DNA of 64,000 nt from Halioglobus sp. (GTDB lineage Bacteria > Pseudomonadota > Gammaproteobacteria > Pseudomonadales > Halieaceae). The notes beneath the pieces were generated by a model. It searched no databases. It was not told the DNA's origin and saw only the letters and a program-made list of their open reading frames with translations. Shown one piece after another: positions 5,227 to 48,410 of the stretch (positions are counted from its first letter, which is position 1; each line of letters opens with the position of its first letter). Where the stretch lies: positions 16,945 to 80,944 of the forward strand of contig JABSPW010000001.1 in NCBI GenBank assembly GCA_013214285.1. The letters run 5' to 3'. The translations under genes were made by a program, and so were the position numbers.

Positions 5227-5228
5227 TC

Positions 5229-29040: not shown

Positions 29041-29925
29041 GTGCCAATTCATAGCCGAGCAGGGGAACCCGCTGATTCAGGTGACGTGTGGCCCACATTT
29101 ATCGTCATCGGCGCACCAAAGGCAGGCACTACCTCGGTCTACCACTATCTTGATCAGCACCCGGACATTTATATGAGCCCGGTAAAGGAACCACATTATT
29201 TCTCCCTTACCGAGGAGATGTTACGCAATAACACAAAATCGCACATGCACGGAGTCACGTACACTAAAGAAGAATACCAAAATCTCTTTAGCGAAGCTGC
29301 TGGACAACGCGCCCTGGGCGAGGCGTCAACTGGTTATCTGTTGAGTTCCACTGCAGCCGAAAGTATCAGTTTATCCATACCCGATGTGAAGATAATCGTT
29401 ATGCTTCGAAATCCGGCTGACCGCGCTTTTTCGGGCTACCTCATGAAACTGCGCAACTCCAAGGAAACGTCATCATTAAAGGACGCCTTCGTACGAGGTA
29501 AGTCCTATGTGGAAGCCAGTTTCTACTATGAAAATCTACTCCGCTACTTTGACCGTTTCCCAATTGAACAAATAGGTATTTTCTTATTCGAGGAATTTAG
29601 CAAAGACCCCGTCGCAGTGATGCGCCGTATTTATGAATTTGTTGGTGTAGACGCGTTATTTCGTCCCGAGACAACTCAATATAACAGTGCTTGGATACCC
29701 AAGAATATGTTTTTAAATAGCCTAAGGACGTTCGTACTCCGGTCTAAACGAGTCCGATATCTGTTGAATAACACACCGGTCAAGCGCGCATTTCGAAAAT
29801 TGACACGAGAAGACCCGCCAGATTTTTCAGCGTCGGCTCGAATTCAGTTGTTAGATATTTATCGTCGGGATATTGCCAATGTCGAAGGATTGACTGGATT
29901 AAATCTGTCACATTGGCTAGATTAG
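29041..29925 (+). CDS. PAPS-dependent sulfotransferase (ST1)
   Basis: The 5'-PSB loop is VIGAPKAGTTSVYHYL and the 3'-PB motif is VMLRNPADRAFSGY. The start is GTG. Confidence 0.85.
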   Translation: MPIHSRAGEPADSGDVWPTFIVIGAPKAGTTSVYHYLDQHPDIYMSPVKEPHYFSLTEEMLRNNTKSHMHGVTYTKEEYQNLFSEAAGQRALGEASTGYLLSSTAAESISLSIPDVKIIVMLRNPADRAFSGYLMKLRNSKETSSLKDAFVRGKSYVEASFYYENLLRYFDRFPIEQIGIFLFEEFSKDPVAVMRRIYEFVGVDALFRPETTQYNSAWIPKNMFLNSLRTFVLRSKRVRYLLNNTPVKRAFRKLTREDPPDFSASARIQLLDIYRRDIANVEGLTGLNLSHWLD

Positions 29926-30050
29926 GTCGCTTCTCTTACACACTTCTTTTCCTTCAGCAAGCGCTGCATTCTGCCCAGTAGCCGAGACTGTACACTATGC
30001 GTCTATTGTGTAGACCGTCCTGACGACAAGATGCAAGAATTATTTCTGGC

Positions 30051-30965
30051 TCAAGGCTTGTAATCAAACTCGGCAAGTCGTGAGCCCGCGACAAAATTGA
30101 CCCATCGATGCATCCAGGGGGCCAAATGGTCACGCCAACGATCTACACCCTGCCGATCAAAACCCTGTCCTTTCTCTGTTGAGAAACTAGATCCGTACTT
30201 CGCTGGCTGTAGCATTGCAGGATCAAAGTCGAATTCAAGAAATTTACACAAGTCACGGACTGTACTTTCTGAATCATCCAATAGTTTTTCATAACATACC
30301 AACTTGTATCTTCCCGAATATTTGCGTGAGTAACGCTTGTGCAGACGGACTGCATACAGCCAGGTAACCGTAATATACATCACAACTGCGAGACTTTTGA
30401 TCGGACGAATTATGCGATCGAGAACGCCTCTCCCTGCTTGTACGTTTTTTCGCCACTCTGAAGCCAAAATCGCTCGGGGATCTCTAAAAGTATGGATCAC
30501 ATACGCATCAGGATACCAGGTCTTTATTTTTGGCACGTAATACAAGTTCCCTGGCATCTTTTCACCCATAGCAGCGTCCTGCGCTGCCTCTAGGCCATGA
30601 CTCGCAATCAAAGGCGCACGAATAATTGCGTCATATATCTCTCTTTCAGTTCGTGCCGAGTTCTTTACTAGATCACTCATGATATTGCGAGGTATATCTA
30701 AAAACTCGCCGCCCAGCATGCTCCAGTAGGAACCACGAGGTGACTTAGAATACATATAGTCGATCAGCCGCTCGACATTTTGTTCTTGCATCAAATTTCC
30801 AAACTTTGATAGCTTGTTCCGAAGACCAGGACGAAACATATCACCGAAGAACCAAGACTCCGGCGCTAGCTGACATATCCTGCCCGGATGGGCGCACACA
30901 ATACTCTTCATCATCTTGCTGCCTGTGCGAGGCAGTCCGACGATGAAAATGTACTTATTGCTCAT
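30051..30965 (-). CDS. PAPS-dependent sulfotransferase (ST2)
   Basis: The 5'-PSB loop is IVGLPRTGSKMM and the 3'-PB motif is IHTFRDPRAILASEW. Confidence 0.8.
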   Translation of the reverse strand: MSNKYIFIVGLPRTGSKMMKSIVCAHPGRICQLAPESWFFGDMFRPGLRNKLSKFGNLMQEQNVERLIDYMYSKSPRGSYWSMLGGEFLDIPRNIMSDLVKNSARTEREIYDAIIRAPLIASHGLEAAQDAAMGEKMPGNLYYVPKIKTWYPDAYVIHTFRDPRAILASEWRKNVQAGRGVLDRIIRPIKSLAVVMYITVTWLYAVRLHKRYSRKYSGRYKLVCYEKLLDDSESTVRDLCKFLEFDFDPAMLQPAKYGSSFSTEKGQGFDRQGVDRWRDHLAPWMHRWVNFVAGSRLAEFDYKP

Positions 30966-31224
30966 TCTAATAGCACTTCCGCCGCGATGACAATCTTAGG
31001 ACTCCTGTTATCTGCCGCTGAATTCCTTTAGTCATATTCACTTGAATCTGCGAATCCACACAAATTCTGACTGGCCTTTATGAATACTGGCCACAACATG
31101 ATAATTGATAGCTCACCATGCTCCCTGATGTGATAACACCGCCGTGGAAGACATCCCATATACAACCGTAAGACAGTAGCTGTAGAATCTAAAGAAACTC
31201 AATATGAAAAATCCTTAGACATTT

Positions 31225-32217
31225 CTAAGTAAACGTCGACCTTAGGTTTCTTAGCATCGTACTAAATCCGCTCAATTCTGCGTAAATGAGGATTTTGTCA
31301 TCAGTCGCTGGCATATTAATTCTAGCTATATCAAAGTCGCCGCGTCCCCTCTGCTTTATATTCATGAACGCTTTGTCGAAAATAGAAGCTTCACACCTGG
31401 AAATCACTCTATGGTCTACCTCGACAGGCCTACCAAATGGATAGCCATACCAATCAGAGTTATATAAATCTACATATCTTTCACAACGACGAAAGTCTTC
31501 ATCCAACTCTTGATCAGACAGCCTCGATAGAATCTCATGCGTGTAAGAGTGGCAAGCAACTCGGCATCCCGCTTCTACCAGCAACGCGATTTCCTCCGGA
31601 CACAAAGGTTCAAATCTCTGCAACCGATATCTATCTGTTATGTCCAAGGACTCGAAGCTATACTGCATCTCTAGCTCAGCCAAAAGCCGATCTTTTTCTG
31701 CATAGTTCTCAAGAAGCGATGCCCACACATCTTCAAATGCTTCCACTCTGTCCGTATCAGTAGCAATCTTTGTGATTTTTCCCTGAATATTGTAAGTCCC
31801 ACTGGGAACACATGTGAACCACATCAACATCCTGTCAACCCAGAGCATGCCTTGATTTTCAAAGTAGCTAGCAGGAATAAAAAATGTAGCCGACACCTCC
31901 TGCGCCTGCAGAATCGGTAACGCAACATACAAATTATTCTTATGACCATCGTCGAAGGTAATTAAAGCTTCTCCCGCTTCTAGATCTGAACCAATGGGCA
32001 ACTTAGCTTTGATAATAGAAAGCTGCCTCTCGAATACAGAAGCTTTTTGGGTTACAGATAAATGTGGATGGCTATCATACAACTCATCTTCTACTATATT
32101 GTGGTAGGTGATAACGATAGGTCGCTTCTTTATAACAAACAGTACATTAATGAAACCTAAATAGTAGGCCAATAAATACACTGTCTTCACAAGATATTTC
32201 TTCACTCTACAGTCCAA
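31225..32217 (-). CDS. Polysaccharide deacetylase (NodB homology domain)
   Basis: Motifs are ALITFDDGHKNN and CHSYTHE. The start is TTG per the ORF track, with an alternative GTG four codons in. Confidence 0.8.
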   Translation of the reverse strand: MDCRVKKYLVKTVYLLAYYLGFINVLFVIKKRPIVITYHNIVEDELYDSHPHLSVTQKASVFERQLSIIKAKLPIGSDLEAGEALITFDDGHKNNLYVALPILQAQEVSATFFIPASYFENQGMLWVDRMLMWFTCVPSGTYNIQGKITKIATDTDRVEAFEDVWASLLENYAEKDRLLAELEMQYSFESLDITDRYRLQRFEPLCPEEIALLVEAGCRVACHSYTHEILSRLSDQELDEDFRRCERYVDLYNSDWYGYPFGRPVEVDHRVISRCEASIFDKAFMNIKQRGRGDFDIARINMPATDDKILIYAELSGFSTMLRNLRSTFT

Positions 32218-32714
32218 CGCTCATCCTGAATATACTAATAGCCAATCGGATAAACAGCGTACGCACCATGGAAAAGGTTCTCGACGCTACCATGCCGGCT
32301 TAAATTACCGTATGAAAAATTGCATCCACACCATATAATGAGCACGATGATGACCACGAGATAGGTATAATACTGTCCTTTCTGGATACGCTGGAGGGGT
32401 GTCCTCAGTTACGTCTAAGGGGAGGCTCATCCAATTTCAAGCAGGGGTTACAGATAGGTTTCTCTATGCCCACGGCTCTCTACTCTGCTCCTTTCCCCGC
32501 ACATCTGAATGACTCTAATAATACTACTCCCTGATCGGAGACCTTGGAAGGCCAAGATAGTATCAAACTGTGACCTGGGTCCAGAGCAGAAGCTCCGGTG
32601 ACTGAATAATTGATCTATTTTAGGCTACAAACTGGCGAAACAAGTTACTTTCAATAGCGCATGCCTTTCATACAACTCTAGCTGACCGAATTTCACTGCA
32701 ATAGCTGATACAGG

Positions 32715-34106
32715 TTATCGTTCTGCCAAACCATACTTTTCTATCAAGCCGCCTTGTTTTTCACCAGAAGACGGATGTACCGTCATGGGTCTATCCGACG
32801 CTTTGAAAAGCTGATCTATCAACCCACACGCAATTGCCGCGTAAATATACAGCCTCTTTTCGGTGCCATTCCCCTCGACCAGCATTCTTATTAGCTGGCC
32901 TGATATTATTAAAACAAAAAACTGCGCGTTGCGCGAAAAATCAGCCGATGGATATTTCAATCTGCCCATTGCATACGGCAGTAAAGTGATGATTGGATAA
33001 AGCCAGATTAAAACAAAAGGCAGGTAGCCGACAATTCCCAAGTTCTTGAGAATGTTCAGATGGGTGGTATGACTTCCAATTCGCAGATGCCCTGCTAGCG
33101 TCTCCCCTGACACAAATCTTGAACCATCGCGAATCAAGCCGAATTCATAGGTTTTTCCATAGCCGGTACCTATCACCGGGTTCTCGATGATCTCTTCGAA
33201 CATCGGAAGAAAGTACTTATAGCGAGCGGGAGATGTTTGCTCGAGAGAGCCCAGCTTTGTTAGGCGCTTAAGATTGCCCGGCGGCGCCATTTCATGAATA
33301 ACCTGAACAAATACAACCATCAATATCATCGTCGAAACCATGAACCCAGTAAGTAAAAATCTTCTGTTCAAGAACATCCAAATCGCTATACACACTAGTG
33401 TTGAAAGAAGACCTACACGACCACCCCCAAGAACAATGCATAATCCAAAGTAGCCAACTAGAGTTTTTCTAAACCTATAACCACGTCCAGAGTTGCTGAG
33501 TGTTAAAATAAATCCAAGCTGAGCGAACACCTCGAGAAAAGGCATTCTCGTGCTGCCGGCACTAACACCACTGCCCCCAAGCTTATTTACCGACCACGCA
33601 TGCGTATCCAAGCCTGGCAAGCTCAAGCCTGTGAATAACATAAAGAGTCCAAGTAATGTCACGCCGAGGGCTATATAGAAAAGAATATCAAGGGCCTGAG
33701 CGATCGGTATTTTGCTTTTATGTAGCCAATACAACGCTGTCAAAAAAGTAAAAAGGCTGCAGAGAAATCGCCAATAGTGTTTTAGTCCACCGTCAGACCC
33801 TCCAACTAGACTACTCGCCATAACGGGATTACGAACATATGAAATCAAAACTACGAACATGAAAAGCGCGATAAACAAAAAATGCAGGTTGCCTTTCGTT
33901 GGCAGAAAGTTGCTGAGGTTTTTGGTAAGAACCGCATTTACAACGCTATAACCAAATATTAAAGGAATTAGGATATCCGCCAGCTGTAATTTAGCTACAC
34001 CCAAAGCTTTACCTGAAAAAGGGATGAAAGCCAAAATCATCACGATTACGAGAGGCGCTATAGACCGCAATCCTCTAAATCTAACCCGCTCTTGCTCTTT
34101 AATCAC
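32715..34106 (-). CDS. O-antigen ligase/polymerase-like polytopic membrane protein (Wzy_C type)
   Basis: The 463-aa protein has about 10-12 TM helices and a large loop region. This is typical of Wzy-type or exosortase-associated O-glycosylation-ligase-type proteins. No sequence-specific motif was verified. Confidence 0.65.
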   Translation of the reverse strand: MIKEQERVRFRGLRSIAPLVIVMILAFIPFSGKALGVAKLQLADILIPLIFGYSVVNAVLTKNLSNFLPTKGNLHFLFIALFMFVVLISYVRNPVMASSLVGGSDGGLKHYWRFLCSLFTFLTALYWLHKSKIPIAQALDILFYIALGVTLLGLFMLFTGLSLPGLDTHAWSVNKLGGSGVSAGSTRMPFLEVFAQLGFILTLSNSGRGYRFRKTLVGYFGLCIVLGGGRVGLLSTLVCIAIWMFLNRRFLLTGFMVSTMILMVVFVQVIHEMAPPGNLKRLTKLGSLEQTSPARYKYFLPMFEEIIENPVIGTGYGKTYEFGLIRDGSRFVSGETLAGHLRIGSHTTHLNILKNLGIVGYLPFVLIWLYPIITLLPYAMGRLKYPSADFSRNAQFFVLIISGQLIRMLVEGNGTEKRLYIYAAIACGLIDQLFKASDRPMTVHPSSGEKQGGLIEKYGLAER

Positions 34107-34185
34107 AATTCAATTCTCACATATTTAGTCTATGCCAAAACATTTTAGGAGACGCTGCAGTGGGATTTCTGATCGCTGTCAAACA

Positions 34186-36138
34186 CTAGTCCCCAAAATC
34201 CACCGACCACCGATACTCAAACGAGTCTCTCTTTGCACTTGGAATTTCAAGCACCAACTGAGACGCTTGTTCAAGAACACCATAACGAGGAGAATACGGG
34301 ACCTGTCTTAGTTCAGCACTCTCCCAGCCCTGTAGGCGCAGACGGCGCTTCGAACCATATCTCCGAAAAGTCCAACGTCCTTCAAATTGCACTGCAGGGT
34401 GAAGATTAAGAAACCAGACAACATTCTCTCCTGACAGACCGCTTATTACGTCATGTACTAACAAACGTCCTATTTCTTTGCTGATTTCCAATTTCCGCAT
34501 GATACAAATGATACGGTTATCTTTTTTTACTTTTATGCGACCTGCCACAGCGAGTGGTGAGGACTCAAACATTTCTCCTCGCGCGTGGTTGTCACTGTGA
34601 AAAGACCCTAATATGCGCATCTGCTCCGCATCTCCGACGAGAATCACATTGTGTGCAGCTCCGAGACGCATGGCGTCAGAAATTGATTTCTCATGGTAAC
34701 TGTATGTACCACGATCCACGAACCAGGAAAGCCCATCAACACACACGTTAATGCTGAGTAGATCGCAATGTGCGTGCGGCGCATACCCTGGTATTCTCGG
34801 AAAATCCATCGGACCAGACCGGAAATAGACTGAATAACGGCCATTATCGTCATGAACTCTGGACATCCAGTGCCCGCTCTTGGTGAGACTAGAGCACGTT
34901 TGAGCCATATCATCCCACTCACTAGCGTCTACCCCATACTCTGTGGAAAAATCAGAGGTAGAACACAAAGCCTTAAACATACTGAGACAGACCTCTATTG
35001 AATCCGGGCTCGCCTCATAAGTTGGCACGAGGACATGGCCATTATCCTCATCACCCACAATCACTATTCTGTCTTTATCGTACCTGAACACAGTAAGCGA
35101 TTTCAGATAGCAACTGATATAGACATCAAGACCTTCCGAGCCATCAACAATCAAACGAACTAATATGAGCGCCTCTAAAACGAAGCGGAGATAACTCGAC
35201 GCCTGTTCAACGTGCATACCATCGGAATGAGTTTGTCTATTGAGCTCGTCTAGCAACGACTTAATTAGTCCGTGTTTGCGATAGCGTACACCAGCGGCTT
35301 TCAAAAAATCAGGAAACAGCTCGAAAAATACAATTAAGGCACTCAGCTCTACTATAGTATGGTTATTCTTAAGTTCCGTATCACTGCCCTGATCGTCAAT
35401 ATCCACAGAAAGATTTTCGCAAAGAAACCGCATTTGCTGATACATACTGACTAATATTTTATCCTCATCATCAGCTTCAATGCTTCCCTCCTCAAGAAAC
35501 GCTAAGCTCAAACTCCACGATACCAATCGCAAACCAATTTCCATCGAGCTTATCCAATTTAAAGAGCAAAACACCGGATTCTTTTCGATCCAAGAAAGAA
35601 TATGTTTAACAATACAGCGGGCATATTCCTTGTTGGATGTGATGCGACTTGCAATTGATAGCCCTAGTAGGTGCTGCTGACGATTTAGCTCCCAGGTAAA
35701 TCGGAAATCACCATGCTTACCAGACGTATTCCTAAGCAGTCGACGATATCGAGTGTAGAAAATATTTGGCCATGTACCTTCACCAGTTATATCAACGTTC
35801 CAATCAAGACCTTCACCAAGCTCTATGGCTCTGTCATAGACGACTACCGATCCGCAAATAAGTGAATCAGAATATTTCATAAACTGGTTCCGGCGTTCAC
35901 TATCGTTAGCTATTAGAGTCGAAACATCTTTAAGATATTCCGAAAATGTTGATGTATTCAGCCGCTTACGCGCTTTTAAAACTAAACCATGGGACAAATC
36001 CTTCGGCCCGAGATCAAGCGGAGTAACCTTCCTGTAATCAGCACTTTTGCAACGCAAATATGTTTGTAGCTGCTGGGTCATCCTAGTCGTCCGGCGCATT
36101 ACTCCACGATATAGCCCCAAAGGTGTTAGCAAAGCCAT
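34186..36138 (-). CDS. Heparinase II/III-family protein, no signal peptide
   Basis: Motifs are NNHTIVELSAL and GYAPHAHCDLLSINV, paralogous to the NNHLIGELTGL and AAHGHADALS motifs of 51478..53454. The N-terminus MALLTPLGLYRGVMRRTTRM is not signal-like. Confidence 0.7.
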   Translation of the reverse strand: MALLTPLGLYRGVMRRTTRMTQQLQTYLRCKSADYRKVTPLDLGPKDLSHGLVLKARKRLNTSTFSEYLKDVSTLIANDSERRNQFMKYSDSLICGSVVVYDRAIELGEGLDWNVDITGEGTWPNIFYTRYRRLLRNTSGKHGDFRFTWELNRQQHLLGLSIASRITSNKEYARCIVKHILSWIEKNPVFCSLNWISSMEIGLRLVSWSLSLAFLEEGSIEADDEDKILVSMYQQMRFLCENLSVDIDDQGSDTELKNNHTIVELSALIVFFELFPDFLKAAGVRYRKHGLIKSLLDELNRQTHSDGMHVEQASSYLRFVLEALILVRLIVDGSEGLDVYISCYLKSLTVFRYDKDRIVIVGDEDNGHVLVPTYEASPDSIEVCLSMFKALCSTSDFSTEYGVDASEWDDMAQTCSSLTKSGHWMSRVHDDNGRYSVYFRSGPMDFPRIPGYAPHAHCDLLSINVCVDGLSWFVDRGTYSYHEKSISDAMRLGAAHNVILVGDAEQMRILGSFHSDNHARGEMFESSPLAVAGRIKVKKDNRIICIMRKLEISKEIGRLLVHDVISGLSGENVVWFLNLHPAVQFEGRWTFRRYGSKRRLRLQGWESAELRQVPYSPRYGVLEQASQLVLEIPSAKRDSFEYRWSVDFGD

Positions 36139-36143
36139 CTCAA

Positions 36144-37439
36144 TTACACCACGCTGCGAAAAACCGACTCGAGCTTCCTCGTAAGATACTTACGGTCAAA
36201 CTCTTTAAGACCACTAATATCATTCAGCGACATTGAACCAGCCTGCCAATGCTTGAAGCACTTCAATATACATTGATAAATCGCCTCTTCATTGTCAGGC
36301 TCTACTACTTGCCCTAGTCCGTATTTCTGTACAAGATGGGCCGCAGCACTATGCTTGCTATCAAGCAACAGCATGCTATTCCGACTGCCCCAATATTCAT
36401 AAAGTTTTCCCGGCACGAGCGATGGCATGTCATAATTGATTACCACGGGCAGGTGAGCCTTAACGAGAGTCTCTACGAAACGCTCACGTTGCATGTAATC
36501 GACTCGCCTGACGACACCACCTAGCTCAAGCCTTTCCACAAGCTGCGCTTGCGCAGATGGCATCCTGCCTAAAATTAGAAACTCTATCTGCGTTGCGGCA
36601 TTCGGTATATCTGAAATTATTCGCCTTAAAGCCCGGAAGAGGTGTGACAAATCCCTACGATCAGAAAATATGCCCGCGTGAATCAACGTGAACTTATCAA
36701 ATTTTTCCGGTGGATTTTCCCAGTATTCTTCATACTCGCTGACATCGCATCCATTCGGGATCATTTCAAATTTCTCTGCAAATTCAGGATACTTTTTCTT
36801 ATACCGATCTAGACTATAGGGTGTCACAGTAATTATCTTTTCAGCATTTTTTATACATTTATACTCCATGCGAGATTCAATCAGGTCTCTATACCGCTGT
36901 AATCCTCGGTTCCTTAATGGGTGTATCCAATCGTCTTTAATGTCGATCACGAGAGGAAGACCCGTTTCTTTTTTTATAGCCACTGCGGATAGCAATACGG
37001 AATAGGGAGGTGCTGTGGCATAAATAATCGAGTACTTGTGCTGTGAGTGCTCCCTTCGTGCTGCCTGACGTAAATTACGCCTCCAAAGAACTTTGTCATC
37101 TGGAATCATTAAGTACTTCCTCAATGGCAAAAGTACAGCAAGCTTCATTTTTCGAAGCAACTTGGACGCTTTCCCATATTCACTGGCGATACCTTTAGGT
37201 TCTCCCGTATCTGTCCTTACTAGCTTAATGTCTTGAGGCACTTGGGCCACGCTGTCCTGTGATTCCTTCGTTACCCACAGCAAGTCAATATCTGATTTGA
37301 CTGTTAGGACCGTCGGCTCCCAACCATTGCTTTCTCTATTTAGAAACGTAAGGAACTTAAGCAATCGAATTGACCCACCTACAGAGCCAAACGGAGGAAA
37401 CGTATGCACCAGCACGAGAACCCTATTACCTATTTCCAC
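36144..37439 (-). CDS. Glycosyltransferase (GT-B, group 1-like)
   Basis: The N-terminus is RVLVLVHTFPPFGSVGGS. The C-terminal region LVPGKLYEYWGS is E-x7-E-like. Confidence 0.7.
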   Translation of the reverse strand: MEIGNRVLVLVHTFPPFGSVGGSIRLLKFLTFLNRESNGWEPTVLTVKSDIDLLWVTKESQDSVAQVPQDIKLVRTDTGEPKGIASEYGKASKLLRKMKLAVLLPLRKYLMIPDDKVLWRRNLRQAARREHSQHKYSIIYATAPPYSVLLSAVAIKKETGLPLVIDIKDDWIHPLRNRGLQRYRDLIESRMEYKCIKNAEKIITVTPYSLDRYKKKYPEFAEKFEMIPNGCDVSEYEEYWENPPEKFDKFTLIHAGIFSDRRDLSHLFRALRRIISDIPNAATQIEFLILGRMPSAQAQLVERLELGGVVRRVDYMQRERFVETLVKAHLPVVINYDMPSLVPGKLYEYWGSRNSMLLLDSKHSAAAHLVQKYGLGQVVEPDNEEAIYQCILKCFKHWQAGSMSLNDISGLKEFDRKYLTRKLESVFRSVV

Positions 37440-41333: not shown

Positions 41334-41349
41334 TGGCACAGTTTGAGCT
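41334..41349 (+). promoter_or_regulatory. Candidate sigma54 (-24/-12) promoter for beta-helix gene copy 2
   Basis: TGGCACAGTTTGAGCT has GG and GC at consensus spacing. It lies in a 45-nt block (41306-41350) matching 26401-26445 at 33 of 45 positions ungapped. Confidence 0.4.
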
Positions 41350-41561
41350 TGCGTTAAACATCACAAGGGCAGCAACCCGTAAGACTCTAGTCAGTATGCG
41401 GGATGAACTGCGGCCAAAGACCGTTTACTGAAAAACTAGATATATATTTAAAATATCATTAATGTGTAAAATCATTCGATAATTATATATCTGGACAGCA
41501 CACCCAGGAAGCATTCACCTCAGGTGCGAGTTGATGACCGAGACTGACAAGGCAAAAATCG

Positions 41562-43085
41562 ATGACGATAAGTAAATTGCTACCCGGATTGGCGCTGCTG
41601 CTGTCGTGTCATCTTGTTTTACCGTCGGCGGCATCCGCAGCCAACTACTACGTCCACGCGAGCAAGGGCTCAAATTCCAGCAGCGGTAAAGCACCTGACG
41701 CCGCCTTCCGCGATCTTAGCTATGCGATTAGGAGGCTGCGCGCCGGCGACACACTCTTTGTGCGTGCCGGTACCTACCGAGAAAAGATGTCCAGCTTGTC
41801 TGCCAGCGGCACACGAAGCGCCCCCATCGTGGTGAAGGCTTATGGCAACGAGAAACCGATTATTCGGACTAGCAACATTACGGTGCTTGCCAATGCGAAC
41901 TGGTGGGTTTTCGAGGGACTCACGTTTCAGACGTCCGAGCAAATACGGCTGGGGGAACGGACTAGGCTCTCGTGCCACAGCTGGGCAAACAATATCACGT
42001 TTAGGAGAAATACCTTTCAAAATAGCAGTGCTAACGCACTTGTCCTGAACTGCGCGCGCCAGATCAATATAGACAGCAACGTGTTCTTTAACATTCGCAG
42101 TCGTCAAATCTCTAAGGACGCATACGGCGTCAAGTCAACTGTTGCGGCACACAATATAGTAATCAGCAACAACCGATTCACCGATATTGGTGGTGATGGC
42201 ATTCAGCTGGTAGGCGATGTAAGGAATGTTCAAATTATCGATAATGAGTTTGAAGTGGTGCATCCCTACCGCTATCGAACTGAAAACGGAAACGTGGATT
42301 CGTCGAATCCTAAACGCTTTGGCAGCGTGGGCGAGAATGCCATCGACCTTAAGGGCGGGCCTGGGCCTTTCACTATCGCAGGCAATGTCATCCATGGTTT
42401 TCGCCCCACTATCAAGGGGACGCAGGATGCATCAGGCGCGATGGGCGTGGGTATCACAATGAGCCACGCAAATGATCGATCGGTCTATATCTACAAGAAC
42501 CATTTCTACGATAACGTCTATGACATTAAAATTAACGGGCATGAGACCAGAAGTGAAATTGCCTACAATATTTTCGAGAATTCGGTGGTCGCTGACCCCA
42601 CGGTTTATGGGAAAAAGACGCAGACGCCCAGGGCATTACACCTGGAGAACACTGGCAACTCCCGGGTCTATAACAACATATTTCACAATGATGTAGCGGG
42701 TGACAAGATACTACTGTTCATCGACGGCGTGCGGAACGTGTTGTTGCAAAACAACGTATTTAGCAACGGTAGAATGGGAGGAAAAGGGGGGCAGTTCTCC
42801 AGTGACCACAATGCCTTCTCTGGCATCACCGATAAGATGGATGACAACTTCAACGGCGTGCGCGATGTCACAGGTAATCTGCGCATGAATTGGTCAACCT
42901 GGAAGCCGAGGAGTAATAGTCCGCTGATCGACGCTGGAATGCGCGTACAAAACAGCCTACAAACTGATTACTATGCGGTATCCGACTTTTTCGGGGCACC
43001 CATCAGGGGCTTAGGTCCAGATATTGGCGCCACAGAGTTTGGCGGCAAACCGCTGCAGGGAGCGCCGCCTCCTGGCTGTCTCTAA
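41562..43085 (+). CDS. Secreted right-handed parallel beta-helix protein, copy 2 (lacks linker and Ig-like domain)
   Basis: The protein is identical to copy 1 from LLPGLALLLSC to GATEFGG. It has its own start MTISK and then diverges to KPLQGAPPPGCL-stop. Confidence 0.75.
   Translation: MTISKLLPGLALLLSCHLVLPSAASAANYYVHASKGSNSSSGKAPDAAFRDLSYAIRRLRAGDTLFVRAGTYREKMSSLSASGTRSAPIVVKAYGNEKPIIRTSNITVLANANWWVFEGLTFQTSEQIRLGERTRLSCHSWANNITFRRNTFQNSSANALVLNCARQINIDSNVFFNIRSRQISKDAYGVKSTVAAHNIVISNNRFTDIGGDGIQLVGDVRNVQIIDNEFEVVHPYRYRTENGNVDSSNPKRFGSVGENAIDLKGGPGPFTIAGNVIHGFRPTIKGTQDASGAMGVGITMSHANDRSVYIYKNHFYDNVYDIKINGHETRSEIAYNIFENSVVADPTVYGKKTQTPRALHLENTGNSRVYNNIFHNDVAGDKILLFIDGVRNVLLQNNVFSNGRMGGKGGQFSSDHNAFSGITDKMDDNFNGVRDVTGNLRMNWSTWKPRSNSPLIDAGMRVQNSLQTDYYAVSDFFGAPIRGLGPDIGATEFGGKPLQGAPPPGCL
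41578..43047 (+). repeat. Direct repeat copy 2 (1,470 bp), identical to 26765..28234 wherever compared
   Basis: Same evidence as copy 1. Confidence 0.95.
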
Positions 43086-43766: not shown

Positions 43767-45080
43767 GTGAATATCAGTATATTTGGTATGGGATACGTAG
43801 GCGTTGTATCCGCTACCTGTCTCGCCAGTGATGGCCACCGTGTCATCGGCGTAGATCCGAATAGGGCAAAGATCACCCTGATCAATGCTGGTGAAGCACC
43901 TATCGTTGAGCAGGGTCTTGGACCCCTGCTGTCCGCAGGTGTGGACTCTGGCCTAATTTCAGCTCGCTCTGATGCAGCATCTGCAGTCCTGGAGACTGAC
44001 ATCTCTTTCATTTGTGTAGGTACCCCCAGCCAGAGTAACGGCAGCCTAGATCTTCGATATGTTAAGAATGTCTGCCAGGAAATCGGCGACGCAGTTGGTC
44101 AAAAAGATAGCTTTCACGTCGTCGTCGTCCGCAGCACTATGCTCCCTGGCAGTATGCTAGATACCGTGATTCCCACGTTGGAAAAAAGTTCGGGTAAGAT
44201 GGCGGGGGAAGGTTTCGGAATTTGCATCAATCCGGAATTCCTCCGGGAAGGAACCGCGATTAATGACTACAAGAACCCGCCCAAGACCGTTATTGGCGAA
44301 GTAGACGCTCGCAGTGGCGACATTTTGGAGGAATTGTACGGCACCCTCGCTGCCCCCCTAGTTCGTACCGATATATCTACCGCGGAGATGGTGAAATACA
44401 CCGATAATGTCTGGCATGCTCTAAAGGTTAGTTTTGCCAATGATATCGGCAACCTTTGCAAGCTAATCGACATTGACGGGCATGAGGTTATGGATATTTT
44501 TTGTCAGGACCACAAGCTCAACTTGTCTACGGCTTACCTAAAACCCGGCTTCGCGTTTGGTGGTTCCTGTTTGCCGAAGGACGTCAGGGCGCTAAGTCAC
44601 AAAGCAAAATCTCTCGATCTCGACATGCCGATCATAGACAACATTCTCGAAGCCAACGAGAGACAGGTTGAACGCGGCCTCTCCATGATCTTAGCAAAAG
44701 CCAACAAGAGGGTGTCCGTGCTTGGATTTAGTTTCAAGGCAGGCACTGACGATCTTCGCGAGAGTCCGCTAGTCGAAGTAATCGAGCGCTTAATAGGCAA
44801 AGGTTATGATCTGCGCCTCTATGACAAAAATGTTTCGATGGCAAGCCTAGTTGGCGCCAACAAGGACTATATTCTCAATGTCATTCCACACATCTCCCAA
44901 CTTATGGTAGAGACCTTGGACGAGGCACTCGCTCATGGCGAAACTATTGTTATCGGTAACGGTGCCGAAGAGTTTGAGACCATACCTTCCAGGACGAAAG
45001 ATAATCAGGTCATCGTAGACCTTGTAAGGATCGGCGATTATCGCAGTATCGAGGGACGATACGATGGAATCTGCTGGTAG
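43767..45080 (+). CDS. algD: GDP-mannose 6-dehydrogenase (AlgD-like)
   Basis: The 437-aa protein aligns by eye along its full length with P. aeruginosa AlgD as I recall it. Shared features are MNISIFGMGYVGVVSATCLA, FICVGTPS, GFAFGGSCLPKDVRAL, SFKAGTDDLRESPLVE and the terminal GICW. The start is GTG. Confidence 0.85.
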   Translation: MNISIFGMGYVGVVSATCLASDGHRVIGVDPNRAKITLINAGEAPIVEQGLGPLLSAGVDSGLISARSDAASAVLETDISFICVGTPSQSNGSLDLRYVKNVCQEIGDAVGQKDSFHVVVVRSTMLPGSMLDTVIPTLEKSSGKMAGEGFGICINPEFLREGTAINDYKNPPKTVIGEVDARSGDILEELYGTLAAPLVRTDISTAEMVKYTDNVWHALKVSFANDIGNLCKLIDIDGHEVMDIFCQDHKLNLSTAYLKPGFAFGGSCLPKDVRALSHKAKSLDLDMPIIDNILEANERQVERGLSMILAKANKRVSVLGFSFKAGTDDLRESPLVEVIERLIGKGYDLRLYDKNVSMASLVGANKDYILNVIPHISQLMVETLDEALAHGETIVIGNGAEEFETIPSRTKDNQVIVDLVRIGDYRSIEGRYDGICW

Positions 45081-46263
45081 ACCCAAGCGAATTCTCTTCA
45101 TTGTAGAAAATCTGCCTTCACCCTTTGACCGCAGAGTGTGGCAAGAAGCTACCACGCTGCAAAAAAACGGGTATGAAGTATCCATCATTTGCCCCACAGG
45201 AAAAGGGTATTCTAAGAAGTACGAAGTCATAGATGGCATACATATCTATCGACACAATCTAATGGTTGAGGCCGAGGGCCCTTTGGGCTATCTCCTCGAA
45301 TATAGCTCTGCACTGTTTTGGGAGGTCTACCTCTCCTTAAAAGTTCTGTTTACCAGAGGTTTTGACGCCATTCATGCGTGTAATCCACCAGACCTGATTT
45401 TCTTAGTTGCGGCGATATACAGACCTTTCGGAAAAAAATTTCTATTTGATCACCATGATATCAATCCGGAGCTGTACGAGGCAAAATTTGGTCGAAGAGA
45501 CATTTTTTGGAAACTTATGCTCTGGTGCGAAAGGCTGACGTTCAAAGCCGCGCATGTCTCTATTGCCACTAACGAATCCTATAAACGCATCGCTATCGAT
45601 CGTGGGGGCATGTATCCCGAGAACGTATATGTGGTGCGTAGTGGACCGACATTAGATCGTCTCAAAATAGTTGCACCGAAACCTGAGCTTAAATGCAAAC
45701 GCAAGTATCTTGTGGGCTATGTCGGTGTGATGGGTAAACAAGAGGGCATCGACTACCTTTTGCGGTCCGTTAGACATATCGTCTTCGAGATGAAGAGACA
45801 AGATATCCATTTCACTCTCGTAGGTGGAGGCACTGAGCTGAAGCAGCTAAAGGCTTATGCCTATGACCTGTGCGTGTCGGACTATGTCACATTCACAGGC
45901 CGAATTCCTGACCAAGACCTGTTGAACGTCCTCTGTACAGCCGATGTCTGTGTCAACCCAGATGTCGGTAACGAGATGAATGATAAATCTACAATGAACA
46001 AAATTATGGAATATATGGCGTTGGCGAAACCCATCGTGCAGTTTGACTTGTCTGAGGGACGATTTTCGGCTGGGAAAGCGTCTCTATACGCAAAATGGAA
46101 CGATGAAATCGATATGGCAGACAAGATAGTCTCACTGCTTGAAGATCCTGAAAAGAGAGAGAGAATGGGAATATACGGTAGAAAGAGGGTTACAGAGGAG
46201 CTCGAGTGGAAATATGAGGAGCCCAAACTCCTGGCTGCCTATGATGCGCTGTTTTCTAATTAG
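45064..46263 (+). CDS. Glycosyltransferase family 4 (GT-B)
   Basis: The N-terminus carries RILFIVENLPSPFDRRVWQEATTLQKNGYEVSII. The C-terminal region is NEMNDKSTMNKIMEYMALAKPIV. The gene overlaps algD-like by 17 nt. Confidence 0.85.
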   Translation: MESAGRPKRILFIVENLPSPFDRRVWQEATTLQKNGYEVSIICPTGKGYSKKYEVIDGIHIYRHNLMVEAEGPLGYLLEYSSALFWEVYLSLKVLFTRGFDAIHACNPPDLIFLVAAIYRPFGKKFLFDHHDINPELYEAKFGRRDIFWKLMLWCERLTFKAAHVSIATNESYKRIAIDRGGMYPENVYVVRSGPTLDRLKIVAPKPELKCKRKYLVGYVGVMGKQEGIDYLLRSVRHIVFEMKRQDIHFTLVGGGTELKQLKAYAYDLCVSDYVTFTGRIPDQDLLNVLCTADVCVNPDVGNEMNDKSTMNKIMEYMALAKPIVQFDLSEGRFSAGKASLYAKWNDEIDMADKIVSLLEDPEKRERMGIYGRKRVTEELEWKYEEPKLLAAYDALFSN

Positions 46264-46282
46264 TTGACTTTCAGTGGTGGGA

Positions 46283-47389
46283 ATGAACATTTTGCACGTA
46301 TGCTGGGATCTAGGTCAAGGGGGCTGTCAACGCTATCTTGTGGACTTACTAAAGGCGCAAAGTCAGCAAGGTATTCAGTGTGAAGTGCTTATACTAACCA
46401 GTGAAGGCTCACTCTCACTGGACGCGGCGTCACTTGTGAAAAAAATACACTATCTGCATATGCGGGGAGGCTTTGACGTGATGTCACTCGGGCCATTGAA
46501 ACGATTTCTGAGTGCCTGCACTGCCGAATTGATACACTCGCACACTGATAATGTCCTGTTTAATTTAGCGCTGGTGAGCGACGCGAGGCCCGTAGTTTAT
46601 ACTGAACATGGAGGTAGGCTTTTAAAGGGAAGATTGGGTAGTAAATTATTTTACCGAATATTTTACCGACGCGTGTCGCGACTGTTTGCAATCTCCTTTT
46701 TTATAGCGAACGTTATGCGAAAATATAACGCCCGTGTGACTAATCGGATTAAGGTAATCCATAATGGCGTTGACCTCGATGAACTTGCGGATTACAAAAA
46801 TTCTACAGCCTCTGGTCCAGACATTGATTTACCCCCTAAGCCCAGGGTAGGATTTGTCGGTCGACTAGTACCAGAGAAGGGCATAGATATCTTCATCGAT
46901 ACGGCGCGCCTTGTCCTTAAAGTCATGCCGGAGGTTAATTTTGTAATCATAGGAGACGGACCGGAACTCGCCCCGATGCAAGAGTTGGTCTCTCGCGAAA
47001 ATATTGGCCACCGCATACATTTCCTCGGCTATCGCAAAGATGCTAGAACCATCATAAGGACTTTCGACATACTGTACTCCACATCCCGCATCGACGCTTT
47101 TGGCTTAGTTCCGGCGGAGGCAATGGCGTGTGGCGTGCCCTGCGTGGCTTTGGAGAATGACTCAGCGGTCTCCGAGATTATTCGGGACGGCACTGATGGG
47201 ATAGTACTAAAAGGCACCAATATGGCTGCCGCGACCAAGGCAATAACTGATCTGCTTGGCAACAGACCTCTGCGAAACAAATTTTCAACGAATGCAATAG
47301 CTCGCATCGAGACTGATTTTTCGATGGAAAAAAACGCACAATTGGTGCTTGGTCAATATCAAGCGCTGACTGAGACTGCAGGCAAGTAA
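46283..47389 (+). CDS. Glycosyltransferase group 1 (GT-B)
   Basis: The N-terminus is MNILHVCWDLGQGG and the E-x7-E region is AFGLVPAEAMACGVPCVA. An alternative GTG start lies at 46274. Confidence 0.8.
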   Translation: MNILHVCWDLGQGGCQRYLVDLLKAQSQQGIQCEVLILTSEGSLSLDAASLVKKIHYLHMRGGFDVMSLGPLKRFLSACTAELIHSHTDNVLFNLALVSDARPVVYTEHGGRLLKGRLGSKLFYRIFYRRVSRLFAISFFIANVMRKYNARVTNRIKVIHNGVDLDELADYKNSTASGPDIDLPPKPRVGFVGRLVPEKGIDIFIDTARLVLKVMPEVNFVIIGDGPELAPMQELVSRENIGHRIHFLGYRKDARTIIRTFDILYSTSRIDAFGLVPAEAMACGVPCVALENDSAVSEIIRDGTDGIVLKGTNMAAATKAITDLLGNRPLRNKFSTNAIARIETDFSMEKNAQLVLGQYQALTETAGK

Positions 47390-47408
47390 AGATGCTTATG
47401 AAGTCAAG

Positions 47409-48410
47409 TTGACAGCTATGTTAACCGAGCAGGGATTTGAGAATGAAAACTGCCTACTTTTCATTATTGGAATGCCCCGATCTGGAACAAAATTACTAAG
47501 GCAGCTATTAAACCAGCACTCAAGAATCCGTATTCCGAATATTGAAACGGAATTTTACCCGTTCCTGGTGCGCTATATTGACAAGCATGGTCCCTGCGAT
47601 GGACTGTCTGATTTCCTTCAGATGGCAAAAGCCCTACAAACTATGCCTTTCTTTATCTATATGCGAGAAGAATGTAATGCTATCGATACTGTAAGTTGGT
47701 ATAAAGCGTGCCGAGACTACAGCGCTGCAGGAATTTTCTACGGCCTGCTACTGTCAGCCACTAAATCGTATGGAAGTAATGGGCTTTTTATCGGTGATAA
47801 ATCGCCTTCATACATCAACCAACTGGCACAACTTAATCAATCGTTTCCAAAAGCCAGATTCATTCATATCGTTAGAGATGCCCGTGATTACAGTCTATCT
47901 ATCAATCACGCTTGGGGAAAAAATAAAATCCGTGCTGCGTCACGATGGTCTGACTCGATTGGGTCACTTATTCGATACCGAAAACACATAAGGCTCCACG
48001 AATTACGCTACGAGGACCTTATCGAAAATCCACAATGCGAACTCAAAGCGATATGTACATTTTTGGGTCTACCGTTCGAAAATGGGATGACTAACCCTGA
48101 TCGTATCGTAGAAAACCTGGGTGACACACGAGATTCCATCAATGTGATACCTGCGAATTCACATAAGTACAAGCGTCTAATGACAAAACGATGTCAGCAT
48201 AAAATTGAAAAAATTACTTGTGAAGAAATGCGTACTTATGACTATGAAATCGAATGGTCAGGTGAAGCAAAAAAGCCCAATCCGCTTACTAATATGTTTT
48301 TGCAGCTAATAGATGGCTTTAATTTGGTGAGGCATGAAAAGAACCAGCGAGGTATCTTTGGCAGTATCGCCTTCTATTGGAACTATTTCCGCGCCACCCG
48401 TGCGCTTTAG
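47409..48410 (+). CDS. PAPS-dependent sulfotransferase (ST5)
   Basis: The 5'-PSB loop is IIGMPRSGTKLLRQLL and the 3'-PB motif is IHIVRDARDYSLSIN. The start is TTG at 47409, with an alternative ATG at 47418. Confidence 0.8.
   Translation: MTAMLTEQGFENENCLLFIIGMPRSGTKLLRQLLNQHSRIRIPNIETEFYPFLVRYIDKHGPCDGLSDFLQMAKALQTMPFFIYMREECNAIDTVSWYKACRDYSAAGIFYGLLLSATKSYGSNGLFIGDKSPSYINQLAQLNQSFPKARFIHIVRDARDYSLSINHAWGKNKIRAASRWSDSIGSLIRYRKHIRLHELRYEDLIENPQCELKAICTFLGLPFENGMTNPDRIVENLGDTRDSINVIPANSHKYKRLMTKRCQHKIEKITCEEMRTYDYEIEWSGEAKKPNPLTNMFLQLIDGFNLVRHEKNQRGIFGSIAFYWNYFRATRAL

Follow-up and report, generated by a model that had tools for sequence, protein, structure and literature searches.

Five putative sulfotransferases (ST1 to ST5) lie within 19.4 kb of the window (the whole 64,000-nucleotide stretch of DNA analysed here), a density far above chance.

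The five sulfotransferases

The open reading frames listed in the first-pass annotation were recovered exactly, at 29041-29925 (+; ST1), 30051-30965 (−; ST2), 37555-38475 (−; ST3), 38472-39248 (−; ST4) and 47409-48410 (+; ST5). All ten PAPS-binding motifs quoted for them were found in the translations: PKAGTTS (residue 26) and RNPADRAFS (residue 123) in ST1, PRTGSKM (12) and RDPRAILAS (161) in ST2, TRSGTTF (41) and RNPNACIAS (148) in ST3, QRTGSTM (20) and RNNYLRVIIS (127) in ST4, and PRSGTKL (23) and RDARDYSLS (156) in ST5. In the profile search that had been proposed as able to refute their identity as PAPS-type sulfotransferases, all five exceeded the Pfam gathering thresholds; the bit scores for Sulfotransfer_3 (PF13469) and Sulfotransfer_1 (PF00685) were, respectively, 69.5 and 60.5 (ST1), 93.6 and 46.0 (ST2), 44.6 and 51.9 (ST3), 45.5 and 24.3 (ST4) and 114.5 and 60.1 (ST5). 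Motif conservation was judged in three family alignments: G39, T41-T46, R148 and S156 (ST3) and P20-K25, R153 and S161 (ST5) are invariant or nearly so, while in ST4 R127 and S136 are invariant and R21, G23, S24 and T25 nearly invariant. No sixth sulfotransferase was found in the window, either with family HMMs (which are blind to Sulfotransfer_2-type enzymes) or by Pfam scans of the large open reading frames. As all five proteins lack a signal peptide and a transmembrane segment, they are most likely cytoplasmic enzymes.

ST1 resembles heparan-sulfate 3-O/N-sulfotransferases (E values of 1.8e-43 to PDB entry 3rnl, 3e-11 to human 3-OST-3 and 2e-9 to NDST1), and EPHFF of 3-OST-3 aligns with EPHYF of ST1, within its putative catalytic-Glu motif KEPHYF. 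ST2 is of the Sulfotransfer_3 type; of 1.84 billion representatives, 5,892 match it at E≤1e-3 and just 51 at 1e-30, with 45% identity to the nearest. ST5, also of this type, has 727 homologs and resembles the PDB entries of TPST and the CurM-type sulfotransferase (E ~1e-9). The nearest structures of ST5 and ST2 are TPST and polyketide sulfotransferases rather than carbohydrate sulfotransferases, which runs against the reading favoured below, as does the fact that acceptor specificity is not readable from sequence.

For ST3 and ST4, the weakest of the five, AlphaFold models match only sulfotransferase folds at the top of the Foldseek results. ST3 represents a rare subfamily (no more than 33 homologs among 5.8 billion proteins), and the top 50 PDB matches of its AF2 model (pLDDT 93.2) are all sulfotransferases. 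The ST4 model (pLDDT 90.9) matches TPST, Stf0 and the CurM sulfotransferase, with the highest TM-scores among sulfotransferase matches to Stf0 (0.52-0.56). Together with a score above threshold for Stf0 (PF09037; 28.2 bits, cut-off 22) and 45 homologs, many labelled 'LPS sulfotransferase NodH', this bears out the earlier description of ST4 as NodH/Stf0-like at the family level. Assignment of ST4 as an Stf0 ortholog was rejected, as it scores 24.5 bits where the cut-off is 400.

The enzymes had been described as mutually divergent and not recent duplicates, and both statements hold: the closest pair, ST2 and ST5, shares 20% identity over 261 aa (BLASTP, E 2.5e-7), and every other pair gives E of 5e-4 or weaker. 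ST1, ST3, ST4 and ST5 each have ~50%-identical counterparts in syntenic positions on metagenome contigs, while the nearest relatives of ST2 (41-45% identical) are on contigs too short for synteny. This deep divergence, with syntenic orthologs elsewhere, indicates old, separate lineages.

Start sites were compared with database gene calls, which for ST2 (286 aa) and ST4 (233 aa) lose the 5′-PSB loop; homolog alignments support the longer frames that had been drawn earlier, on sequence grounds. For ST2 the alignments begin at residues 2-6, thus supporting the ATG at 30965. The true start of ST4 is most likely the ATG at codon 11 (39218), since the resulting length of 248 aa agrees with that of its closest homologs. 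For ST5, the protein database entry has 330 aa and begins at the ATG at 47418.

A polysaccharide locus with conserved modules

The host locus of the five genes extends from 14.7 to 53.5 kb (~39 kb) and is of low GC. CarB is 82% identical to that of a Halieaceae MAG. The locus begins with an export and chain-length module (14763-20206, +) that encodes an OPX export protein, an outer-membrane beta-barrel, a chain-length determinant, a tyrosine autokinase and an AAA_22 ATPase (Pfam). Its best NCBIfam matches are XrtA/PEP-CTERM families (TIGR03027, 03016, 03007, 03018 and 03015), all under their cut-offs, so that the machinery appears to resemble the XrtA/PEP-CTERM type; it is kept at 45-76% in two related loci, L085 and L086. 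There follow, on the same strand, a 553-aa WecA/MraY-family initiating sugar-phosphate transferase (20491-22152; PF00953, 128 bits; TIGR02380, 132.7 bits, under cut-off), a PrsT-like TPR lipoprotein (22157-24337; TIGR02917, 266 bits, under the cut-off of 312), a secreted formylglycine-type sulfatase (24735-26147; PF00884, 189.5 bits; signal peptide; CSPSR motif at residue 71) and a secreted right-handed beta-helix protein of the chondroitinase B/pectate-lyase-like kind with a C-terminal Ig domain (26560-28623; Pfam).

ST1 comes next and is convergent with ST2, as had been noted (stops 125 bp apart), ST2 being the final gene of a minus-strand operon. Also on the minus strand are a membrane-anchored polysaccharide deacetylase (31225-32217; PF01522, 56.1 bits; N-terminal transmembrane segment), a multi-spanning Wzy-type polymerase (32715-34106; PF04932, 31.8 bits, barely over the cut-off of 31.7), a heparinase II/III-fold protein without signal peptide (Hep1; 34186-36138; PF07940, PF16889), a GT4-type glycosyltransferase (GT_a; 36144-37439; PF13439), ST3, ST4 and a Wzx flippase (39277-40584; PF01943, PF13440). 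Back on the plus strand are a truncated paralog of the beta-helix protein without the Ig domain (41562-43085; 99% identity over 498 aa), a nucleotide-sugar 6-dehydrogenase (UGD) that would supply a uronic-acid precursor (43767-45080; TIGR03026, 403.7 bits, over cut-off; best equivalog models, UDP-glucose dehydrogenases) and two GT4 glycosyltransferases, GT_b and GT_c (45064-47389; Pfam). ST5, correctly described as embedded between glycosyltransferases, has GT4 enzymes on both sides, being followed by GT_d (48420-49505; Pfam), an AsnB-type glutamine amidotransferase (49603-51477; PF00733, 336.9 bits; TIGR03108, 503.6 bits, under the cut-off of 816.9) and a second heparinase II/III-fold protein without signal peptide (Hep2; 51478-53454; PF07940, 146.9 bits; E 3e-10 to heparinase III PDB entries). 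The locus thus holds exactly one each of Wzx, Wzy, initiating transferase, PCP/kinase/OPX set and sugar dehydrogenase, plus four GT4 enzymes. Pfam scans of the 64-kb window found no PAPS synthesis or recycling genes (cysD, cysN, cysC or cysQ), an observation that counts against the reading proposed below.

Two modules with sulfotransferases are conserved. In module A (Wzx-ST4-ST3-GT-Hep1-Wzy), ST4-ST3 follow Wzx and precede GT, Hep1 and Wzy in L083, L084 and L086, an order of which L085 has part. Orthologs of ST3 (50-53% identical), of Hep1 adjoining it (41-45%) and of Wzy (40-46%) occur in all four loci, and those of GT_a (54-55%) and of Wzx directly upstream of ST4 (48-51%) in L083, L084 and L086; even the 4-bp overlap (ATGA) between the ST4 stop and the ST3 start is identical in L085 and L086. 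In module B (UGD-ST5-GT-AsnB-Hep2), L081 and L082 have UGD on one side of ST5 and GT/AsnB/Hep2 on the other, and the order ST5-GT_d-AsnB-Hep2 is kept there at 50-69% identity (GT_d, 54-58%), and in L082 a 50%-identical ST1 ortholog comes after the Hep2 homolog. GT_b is 63-82% identical in five further loci (L103, L117, L139, L141 and L168). Conservation among related loci does not extend to the deacetylase, the sulfatase or the beta-helix genes, a further point against the reading proposed below. Overall, the locus has the look of a mosaic, built of modules that are found separately elsewhere.

One polymer or several

The locus most probably directs Wzx/Wzy-dependent synthesis of an exopolysaccharide or capsule in a Halieaceae-like marine gammaproteobacterium, the product being a multiply sulfated, uronic-acid-containing heteropolysaccharide; with five very different sulfotransferases in an export cluster, the slime or capsule is probably heavily sulfated. 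The WecA-like transferase would prime undecaprenyl phosphate, on which the four GT4 enzymes would assemble a repeat unit of about five sugars. At the cytoplasmic face each sulfotransferase would then transfer sulfate from PAPS to a separate position of the lipid-linked unit, which would be flipped by Wzx, polymerised by Wzy and exported through the chain-length/tyrosine-kinase/OPX/outer-membrane machinery. That the enzymes use PAPS, act on a glycan, take one position each and work before flipping is what we infer; that they target different positions or residues, as proposed earlier, is a reasonable inference with precedent.

It is possible, though unlikely, that the five do not all serve one polymer, some acting on LPS/O-antigen, a glycolipid or a second exopolysaccharide, or being redundant passengers brought in with their modules by recombination. 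The modules with sulfotransferases do occur apart in other contigs, module A runs opposite to the export module in the window but in the same direction in L085 and L086, ST1 and ST2 sit at operon ends, and the homologs of ST4 are named for LPS. A further sign of recent rearrangement is a direct repeat of 1,470 bp, 100% identical between copy 1 (26765-28234, inside the beta-helix/Ig gene) and copy 2 (41578-43047, inside the truncated paralog). However, Wzx, Wzy and the initiating transferase each occur only once in the locus, ST3, ST4 and ST5 are lodged between these genes and glycosyltransferases, and all sulfotransferase motifs are intact.

This repeat could stem from a recent recombination or from misassembly. 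Between its copies lie ST1-ST4, four of the five sulfotransferases, along with Wzx and Wzy, leaving ST5 outside. The claim of one locus for all five enzymes therefore stands on the contig as assembled and is contingent on that assembly being correct. The 13.3-kb inter-repeat segment might be misthreaded, or be a separate circular or duplicated element, so that a five-enzyme locus would be overstated; the flanks of the two identical copies are unrelated on both sides, and a repeat-segment-repeat path is what a cycle in the assembly graph would give. This is improbable: without the segment the locus would have neither Wzx nor Wzy; both junctions carry intact reading frames (the full-length beta-helix/Ig gene and the truncated paralog, complete with a start and a signal peptide), exactly those that real Campbell-type recombination would yield; the GC of the segment (43-45%) matches that of the neighbouring module B; and L085 and L086 likewise join the export module to module A. 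Sulfation of secreted-protein tyrosines, a small molecule or a lipid, chiefly by the TPST/CurM-like ST2 and ST5, is highly improbable despite their closest solved structures by sequence, as the similarity to TPST is just E ~1e-9 across a shared cofactor core, ST5 lies directly beside a GT4 enzyme and a sugar dehydrogenase in many loci, and Pfam scans found no peptide-precursor or PKS genes in the window.

Comparison with known systems

The multi-sulfotransferase arrangement is not unique: at least two sulfotransferases occur in 19 of the 36 public loci that were anchored by an ST5 relative, and L117 (uncultured gammaproteobacterium MAG MFD02809.bin.1.112) has six that pass Pfam within 11 kb, which makes the five-enzyme arrangement less exceptional than first implied. 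L117 and L139 (Candidatus Litorirhabdus singularis IMCC14734, Halieaceae; three or four sulfotransferases in 10 kb) share with the window the UGD-GT_b pair, ST5-, ST1- and ST4-type enzymes, GT_d and a heparinase-fold protein, and their sulfotransferases are likewise mutually divergent; unlike the window they lack an ST3-type enzyme, and their sulfotransferases are only 25-38% identical to those described here. No experimental study of either was found in the searched literature; similar clusters are thus already in public genomes, barely characterised.

Among marine gammaproteobacteria, Vibrio sp. KMM 8419 and Cobetia marina KMM 1449 have surface-polysaccharide loci with one to three sulfotransferases, but these are of the ABC-transporter (kps) type, comprise 70-80 genes and include cysD/N/C(/Q), PAPS genes being regarded by their authors as a hallmark of sulfated-capsule clusters (PMC11641403, PMC11766843); the window is of the Wzx/Wzy type, with no PAPS genes within 64 kb and five sulfotransferases in 19 kb. 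Likeness to rhizobial NodH and mycobacterial Stf0 is seen in ST4, which passes the Stf0 Pfam model and has NodH-named homologs, and ST3 and ST5 match rhizobial NoeE weakly; every NCBIfam score falls far short of its equivalog cut-off (500 bits for NoeE, with scores of 18-48; 400 for Stf0, with 24.5), and the context is an exopolysaccharide locus rather than nod or trehalose glycolipid genes.

Animal heparan-sulfate sulfotransferases (NDST, 3-OST and others) also provide several position-specific enzymes for one uronic-acid/hexosamine polymer. Only ST1 resembles this set, being detectably homologous to 3-OST and NDST with the E-P-H-aromatic-F motif kept; the locus also encodes a deacetylase and a sulfatase, and its product need not be a glycosaminoglycan. 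The animal enzymes work in the Golgi lumen, on polymer that is already complete. A model for the mechanism is offered by Agl30 and Agl31 of Halobacterium salinarum, separate enzymes that each sulfate one defined sugar while the tetrasaccharide is lipid-linked, cytoplasmic and still to be flipped, although for an archaeal dolichol-linked protein N-glycan rather than a polymerised exopolysaccharide (PMC12624080).

[quoted passage not shown] It has regulators (XssQ/R/S), and its OPX gene lies elsewhere than in the cluster, whereas the window has an internal XrtA-like export set, a sulfatase, a deacetylase, an amidotransferase and two heparinase-fold proteins. Its two sulfotransferases, compared with five in the gammaproteobacterial window, correspond to two sulfates per repeat, the number of enzymes thus equalling that of sulfates (PMC8205485).

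Sulfotransferase identity of the five ORFs

The first-pass annotation had placed five PAPS-type sulfotransferases in one polysaccharide locus, namely ST1 (29041-29925, plus strand), ST2 (30051-30965, minus), ST3 (37555-38475, minus), ST4 (38472-39248, minus) and ST5 (47409-48410, plus). The placement of these open reading frames (ORFs) was exact to the nucleotide, and all PAPS-binding motifs quoted for ST1-ST5 were found in the expected position of their proteins. In profile searches, the test set in advance for this assignment, all five scored above the Pfam gathering scores of PF13469 and/or PF00685, with ST3 and ST4 scoring weakest. The 5′-phosphosulfate-binding loop (x-K/R-x-G-S/T-T/K) is located at residues 26, 12, 41, 20 and 23 of ST1, ST2, ST3, ST4 and ST5, respectively; homolog alignments show no variation in it for the families of ST3 and ST5 and almost none for that of ST4. 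The 3′-phosphate-binding motif (R ... S) is present in all five, its Arg and Ser being invariant across the ST3, ST4 and ST5 families. Such conservation in these three families is as would be expected of functional cofactor sites.

Since a sequence search of PDB with ST3 or ST4 returned no match (nor did one with Hep1, a heparinase II/III-fold protein of the locus), the two were modelled using AlphaFold2. Both models are confident (pLDDT 93.2 for ST3 and 90.9 for ST4) and place the 5′-phosphosulfate-binding loop after the first beta-strand, and their best Foldseek matches are all sulfotransferases (TPST, Stf0, CurM ST, 3-OST and cytosolic SULTs). The sulfotransferase alpha/beta fold is therefore indicated for ST3 and ST4 by model and for ST1 by its sequence match to 3rnl (E 1.8e-43), while ST2 and ST5 match the PDB structures of CurM-type ST and TPST by sequence. 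Profile, motifs and fold all assign ST1-ST5 to the PAPS-dependent sulfotransferase superfamily, with sulfuryl transfer as the predicted reaction. No sixth sulfotransferase was found in the window, either by the HMMs of the five families or by Pfam scans of all large ORFs, the latter covering the Sulfotransfer_2-type enzymes to which the family HMMs are blind.

Two of the five are N-terminally shortened in the protein database: the calls of ST2 (286 aa) and ST4 (233 aa) start past the loop, so that part of the PAPS-binding site is missing from the proteins as called. Homolog alignments back the longer ORFs against these calls; for ST4, alignment places the start probably at the ATG of codon 11 (39218), yielding 248 aa, the length of its closest homologs. 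ST5 is called in the database from 47418.

The mutual divergence that had been judged by eye was borne out, as ST2 and ST5, the closest pair in BLASTP, are 20% identical over 261 residues and all other pairs are marginal. ST1 appears from its sequence to be homologous to the animal heparan-sulfate 3-O- and N-sulfotransferases (E 3e-11 against 3-OST-3), with the E-P-H-aromatic-F motif, which carries the catalytic glutamate of 3-OSTs, kept ('aEPHFFd' aligned with 'kEPHYFs' in ST1). ST2 and ST5 resemble the TPST/CurM-ST group in sequence, and ST4 resembles Stf0/NodH. The 'NodH/Stf0-like' label given to ST4 holds at family level (PF09037, 28.2 bits versus a cut-off of 22), where it is accompanied by a TM of 0.52-0.56 between the ST4 model and the Stf0 structure 1tex and by the JGI name 'LPS sulfotransferase NodH' of ST4 homologs; it fails at the level of the Stf0 (trehalose 2-sulfotransferase) equivalog, which was rejected (NF047724, 24.5 bits versus 400). 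The NoeE equivalog was rejected too (NF052394, at 18.5, 48.2 and 32.5 bits for ST1, ST3 and ST5, respectively, versus a cut-off of 500). The families differ in size: the ST5 family is populous (727 homolog matches), the ST2 subfamily moderate (51 representatives at E<=1e-30, with at most 45% identity to ST2), and ST3 and ST4 are rare (33 and 45 matches, respectively, among 5.8 billion proteins). Relatives of ST3 occur in three of 185,579 species genomes, all three being Bacteroidales MAGs. ST3 and ST4 thus represent rare lineages for which no characterised or solved relative is detectable at the sequence level.

Make-up and modular conservation of the polysaccharide locus

The polysaccharide locus spans ~39 kb (about 14.7-53.5 kb) at a GC content of 44-49% versus ~57% in its flanks, which harbour carbamoyl-phosphate synthase, acyl-CoA metabolism and TonB receptor genes. 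CarB is 82% identical to that of a Halieaceae MAG and 80% to that of Luminiphilus, which puts the organism with the marine Cellvibrionales/Halieaceae-like gammaproteobacteria, at some distance from any species representative. A run of short plus-strand ORFs at 3142-5260, the first of which (3142-3870) carries the TonB-receptor Plug domain only, resembles a TonB-dependent receptor gene that has been fragmented and possibly pseudogenised. A classical genomic island is not supportable for the low-GC locus, as a search of the window for tRNA genes found none and the scanned ORFs yielded no integrase.

The first plus-strand block of the locus encodes export functions (OPX export protein, outer-membrane barrel, chain-length determinant, tyrosine autokinase and AAA_22 ATPase), followed by a WecA-like initiating transferase, a PrsT-like TPR lipoprotein, a secreted formylglycine sulfatase, a secreted beta-helix protein and ST1. 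The minus-strand genes are Wzx, ST4, ST3, a GT4 glycosyltransferase, Hep1, Wzy, a membrane-anchored polysaccharide deacetylase and ST2. The second plus-strand block consists of a truncated beta-helix copy, a nucleotide-sugar dehydrogenase (UGD, 43767-45080), two GT4s, ST5, a GT4, an AsnB-type amidotransferase (49603-51477) and Hep2, a second heparinase-fold protein; ST5 is indeed embedded between glycosyltransferases, with two GT4s before it and another after. A complete Wzx/Wzy-pathway set (initiating transferase, Wzx, Wzy, PCP/tyrosine kinase and OPX exporter) is therefore present in one locus, with the borderline profile match of Wzy (31.8 versus 31.7 bits) backed by multi-TM topology and syntenic orthologs. 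Promoter and terminator scans of 28.5-44 kb yielded sites no more frequently than shuffled sequence did, and operon boundaries were thus not drawn from them.

For the export genes, NCBIfam models of the XrtA/PEP-CTERM exopolysaccharide type (TIGR03027, 03007, 03018, 03015, 02917 and 03108) were the best matches, all of them under cut-off (for example, 262.3 versus 324.5, 232.9 versus 278.85 and 503.6 versus 816.9). As no exosortase (XrtA/EpsH) domain was found in any large ORF of the window (one could sit elsewhere in the genome), membership was rejected, and the locus is XrtA-like rather than a demonstrable member. PAPS-supply genes (cysD/cysN/cysC/cysQ; ATP-sulfurylase, APS-kinase and CysQ domains) were also absent among the ORFs scanned in the window, so the PAPS supply must come from the rest of the genome.

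Comparison with public contigs revealed two conserved modules. Module A (Wzx-ST4-ST3-GT_a-Hep1-Wzy, where GT_a is a GT4) is found in L083, L084 and L086 at 40-55% amino-acid identity and partly in L085; in L085 and L086 the same export module directly adjoins it. Module B (UGD-ST5-GT_d-AsnB-Hep2, where GT_d is again a GT4) is found in L081 and L082 at 50-69% identity, with an ST1 ortholog (50%) immediately after it in L082. Contigs harbouring the closest relatives of ST2 (41-45%) are too short to show gene context. The locus thus combines modules that also occur separately, and four of the five sulfotransferases, each with syntenic orthologs elsewhere, represent old lineages that have been maintained independently, in agreement with the earlier view that they are not recent duplicates. 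The ST4 stop and ST3 start share a 4-bp ATGA overlap in the window (38472-38475) as well as in L085 and L086 (10001-10004 in each); its retention in two distantly related loci suggests translational coupling of the conserved ST4-ST3 pair, which perhaps acts jointly. In L083, the module A contig ends in three transposase genes (15512-18855; DDE_Tnp_1, DDE_3 and others), consistent with mobility of sulfotransferase-bearing modules.

Two adjacent genes (window 43767-46263) are far better conserved than the remaining locus: the dehydrogenase, with 61-66% identity in L103, L117 and L168, and the GT4 glycosyltransferase GT_b, with 63-82% in L103, L117, L139, L141 and L168. Among the taxa represented are Woeseiaceae, Paraglaciecola, Halieaceae and other gammaproteobacterial MAGs, and the conservation suggests a common core step that adds uronic acid. 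Conservation across related loci is lacking for the deacetylase, sulfatase and beta-helix genes. The formylglycine-type sulfatase (24735-26147), located between the PrsT-like and beta-helix genes, has an evident signal peptide and contains the motif CSPSR; its single match among the related loci fetched is weak (L107, 25% identity). Editing or recycling of the sulfated polymer is a possible role.

Hep1 (34186-36138, minus) and Hep2 (51478-53454, plus) carry no signal peptide, and each is kept in its own module, Hep1 with ST3, GT_a and Wzy and Hep2 with AsnB. Given this predicted cytoplasmic location, a biosynthetic role, for example that of a uronyl C5-epimerase such as dermatan-sulfate epimerase, would fit the two heparinase-fold proteins better than that of a degradative lyase. 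A literature search on heparinase II/III proteins in biosynthetic clusters returned nothing directly relevant. A third heparinase-fold type, with a DSE-like_N domain, is encoded in L083 (3773-5767).

Direct repeat and recurrence of multi-sulfotransferase loci

The locus harbours a direct repeat of 1,470 bp (26765-28234 and 41578-43047; 100% identical, ungapped; spacing 14,813 bp). Copy 1 lies inside the full-length secreted beta-helix/Ig-domain gene and copy 2 inside the C-terminally truncated paralog, which begins at a start codon of its own and shares the signal peptide of the full-length gene. Between the copies lie 13.3 kb that encode ST1-ST4, the deacetylase, Wzy, Hep1, GT_a and Wzx; this arrangement could be an artefact of a cycle in the assembly graph. 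Both repeat junctions yield intact ORFs, as such a cycle could also do; however, without the segment the locus would have neither flippase nor polymerase, and the GC content of the segment is the same as that of the remaining locus. On these two grounds, a real and recent rearrangement is favoured, via Campbell-type recombination or duplication; recent Campbell-type recombination leaves a full-length gene plus a truncated paralog.

The frequency of such loci was determined in 80 loci from species-representative genomes, anchored on the ST5-family gene, by counting sulfotransferase-like ORFs within ±10 kb with the HMMs of the five families. Among the 36 loci tabulated (those with >=20 kb of sequence), 17 harbour one such ORF, ten harbour two, six harbour three, two harbour four and one harbours six. 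For example, L117 (an uncultured gammaproteobacterial MAG) carries six sulfotransferases passing Pfam thresholds within 11 kb, and L139 (the Halieaceae isolate Candidatus Litorirhabdus singularis IMCC14734) three plus a marginal one within 10 kb. Those of L117 and L139 are mutually divergent and include ST1-, ST4- and ST5-type members, and both loci also carry the UGD-GT_b pair (61-82% identity), GT_d and heparinase-fold genes. The window, with its five sulfotransferases inside 21 kb, is not unique and sits at the high end of a pattern that recurs across genomes; several divergent sulfotransferases in one EPS locus are already found many times in public data.

Proposed route of sulfation and comparison with known systems

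PAPS is a cytoplasmic metabolite, none of the five sulfotransferases has a signal peptide or membrane segment, and the locus encodes a single Wzx, a single Wzy and a single initiating transferase. In the best-supported model, each enzyme sulfates a particular position on a lipid-linked repeat unit. The WecA-like transferase and four GT4s would build a unit of about five sugars on undecaprenyl diphosphate, including a uronic acid whose precursor would be supplied by the sugar dehydrogenase; ST1-ST5 would each sulfate their own position of it at the cytoplasmic face; Wzx would flip the sulfated unit and Wzy then polymerise it; and export would proceed via the PCP/kinase/OPX/OMP machinery. We infer both the acceptor positions and the N- versus O-sulfation of the five enzymes, and likewise the roles of the deacetylase, the amidotransferase, Hep1 and Hep2 (lyase or C5-epimerase) and the secreted sulfatase.

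Some of the sulfotransferases may instead serve another glycan or a non-glycan acceptor, against which the synteny with glycosyltransferases speaks for ST3, ST4 and ST5. Improbable as a whole is a bacterial glycosaminoglycan mimic of heparin-like charge density, made by prokaryotic enzymes that mirror the heparan/dermatan machinery of animals, where the roughly five-sugar repeat would bear nearly one sulfate per sugar, ST1 would be a 3-OST/NDST-like O- or N-sulfotransferase, the deacetylase and the adjoining ST2 would form a split N-deacetylase/N-sulfotransferase, cytoplasmic Hep1 and Hep2 would act as uronyl C5-epimerases in the manner of dermatan-sulfate epimerase and not as lyases, the secreted sulfatase would edit the finished polymer, and ST4 and ST3, coupled in translation, would belong to a rare lineage not described before and would function only as a pair. 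As the adjacency of deacetylase and ST2 is kept in no related locus, their NDST-like pairing is speculative.

Both the genetics and the enzymology of bacterial polysaccharide sulfation are thin. To our knowledge, the two-sulfotransferase synechan cluster is the sole bacterial polysaccharide-sulfation cluster dissected genetically. The literature on such sulfotransferases is sparse (PMC8205485, PMC7356697, PMC11625862): synechan involves two, from different subfamilies, and its eight-sugar repeat bears two sulfates (PMC8205485), prokaryotic GAG-type sulfotransferases were unknown in 2020 (PMC7356697), and six bacterial genera are known as makers of sulfated polysaccharides in a 2024 review (PMC11625862). 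Synechan is one precedent for the route proposed above; the other is Halobacterium, where Agl30 and Agl31 act on a tetrasaccharide still bound to its lipid, prior to flipping, and sulfate one sugar each (PMC12624080). ST1-ST5 are uncharacterised enzymes, above all the rare ST3/ST4 pair, and the locus and its relatives offer a compact set of five deeply divergent, probably position-specific carbohydrate sulfotransferases. There is demand for such enzymes in the enzymatic synthesis of sulfated glycans of defined structure (heparin-like drugs, biomaterials), and sulfated bacterial EPS may bear on marine carbon and sulfur cycling and on metal binding. The value of the locus is thus that of a resource for sulfotransferase discovery and a testable model rather than of a new principle.

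Among known systems, the locus is no member of the kps-type clusters that bear PAPS genes, and, unlike the sulfated-capsule clusters of Vibrio and Cobetia, where PAPS genes lie in the cluster (PMC11641403, PMC11766843), it has none in the window. It is of the same Wzx/Wzy sulfated-EPS kind as xss/synechan, yet with five sulfotransferases and an XrtA-like export set.
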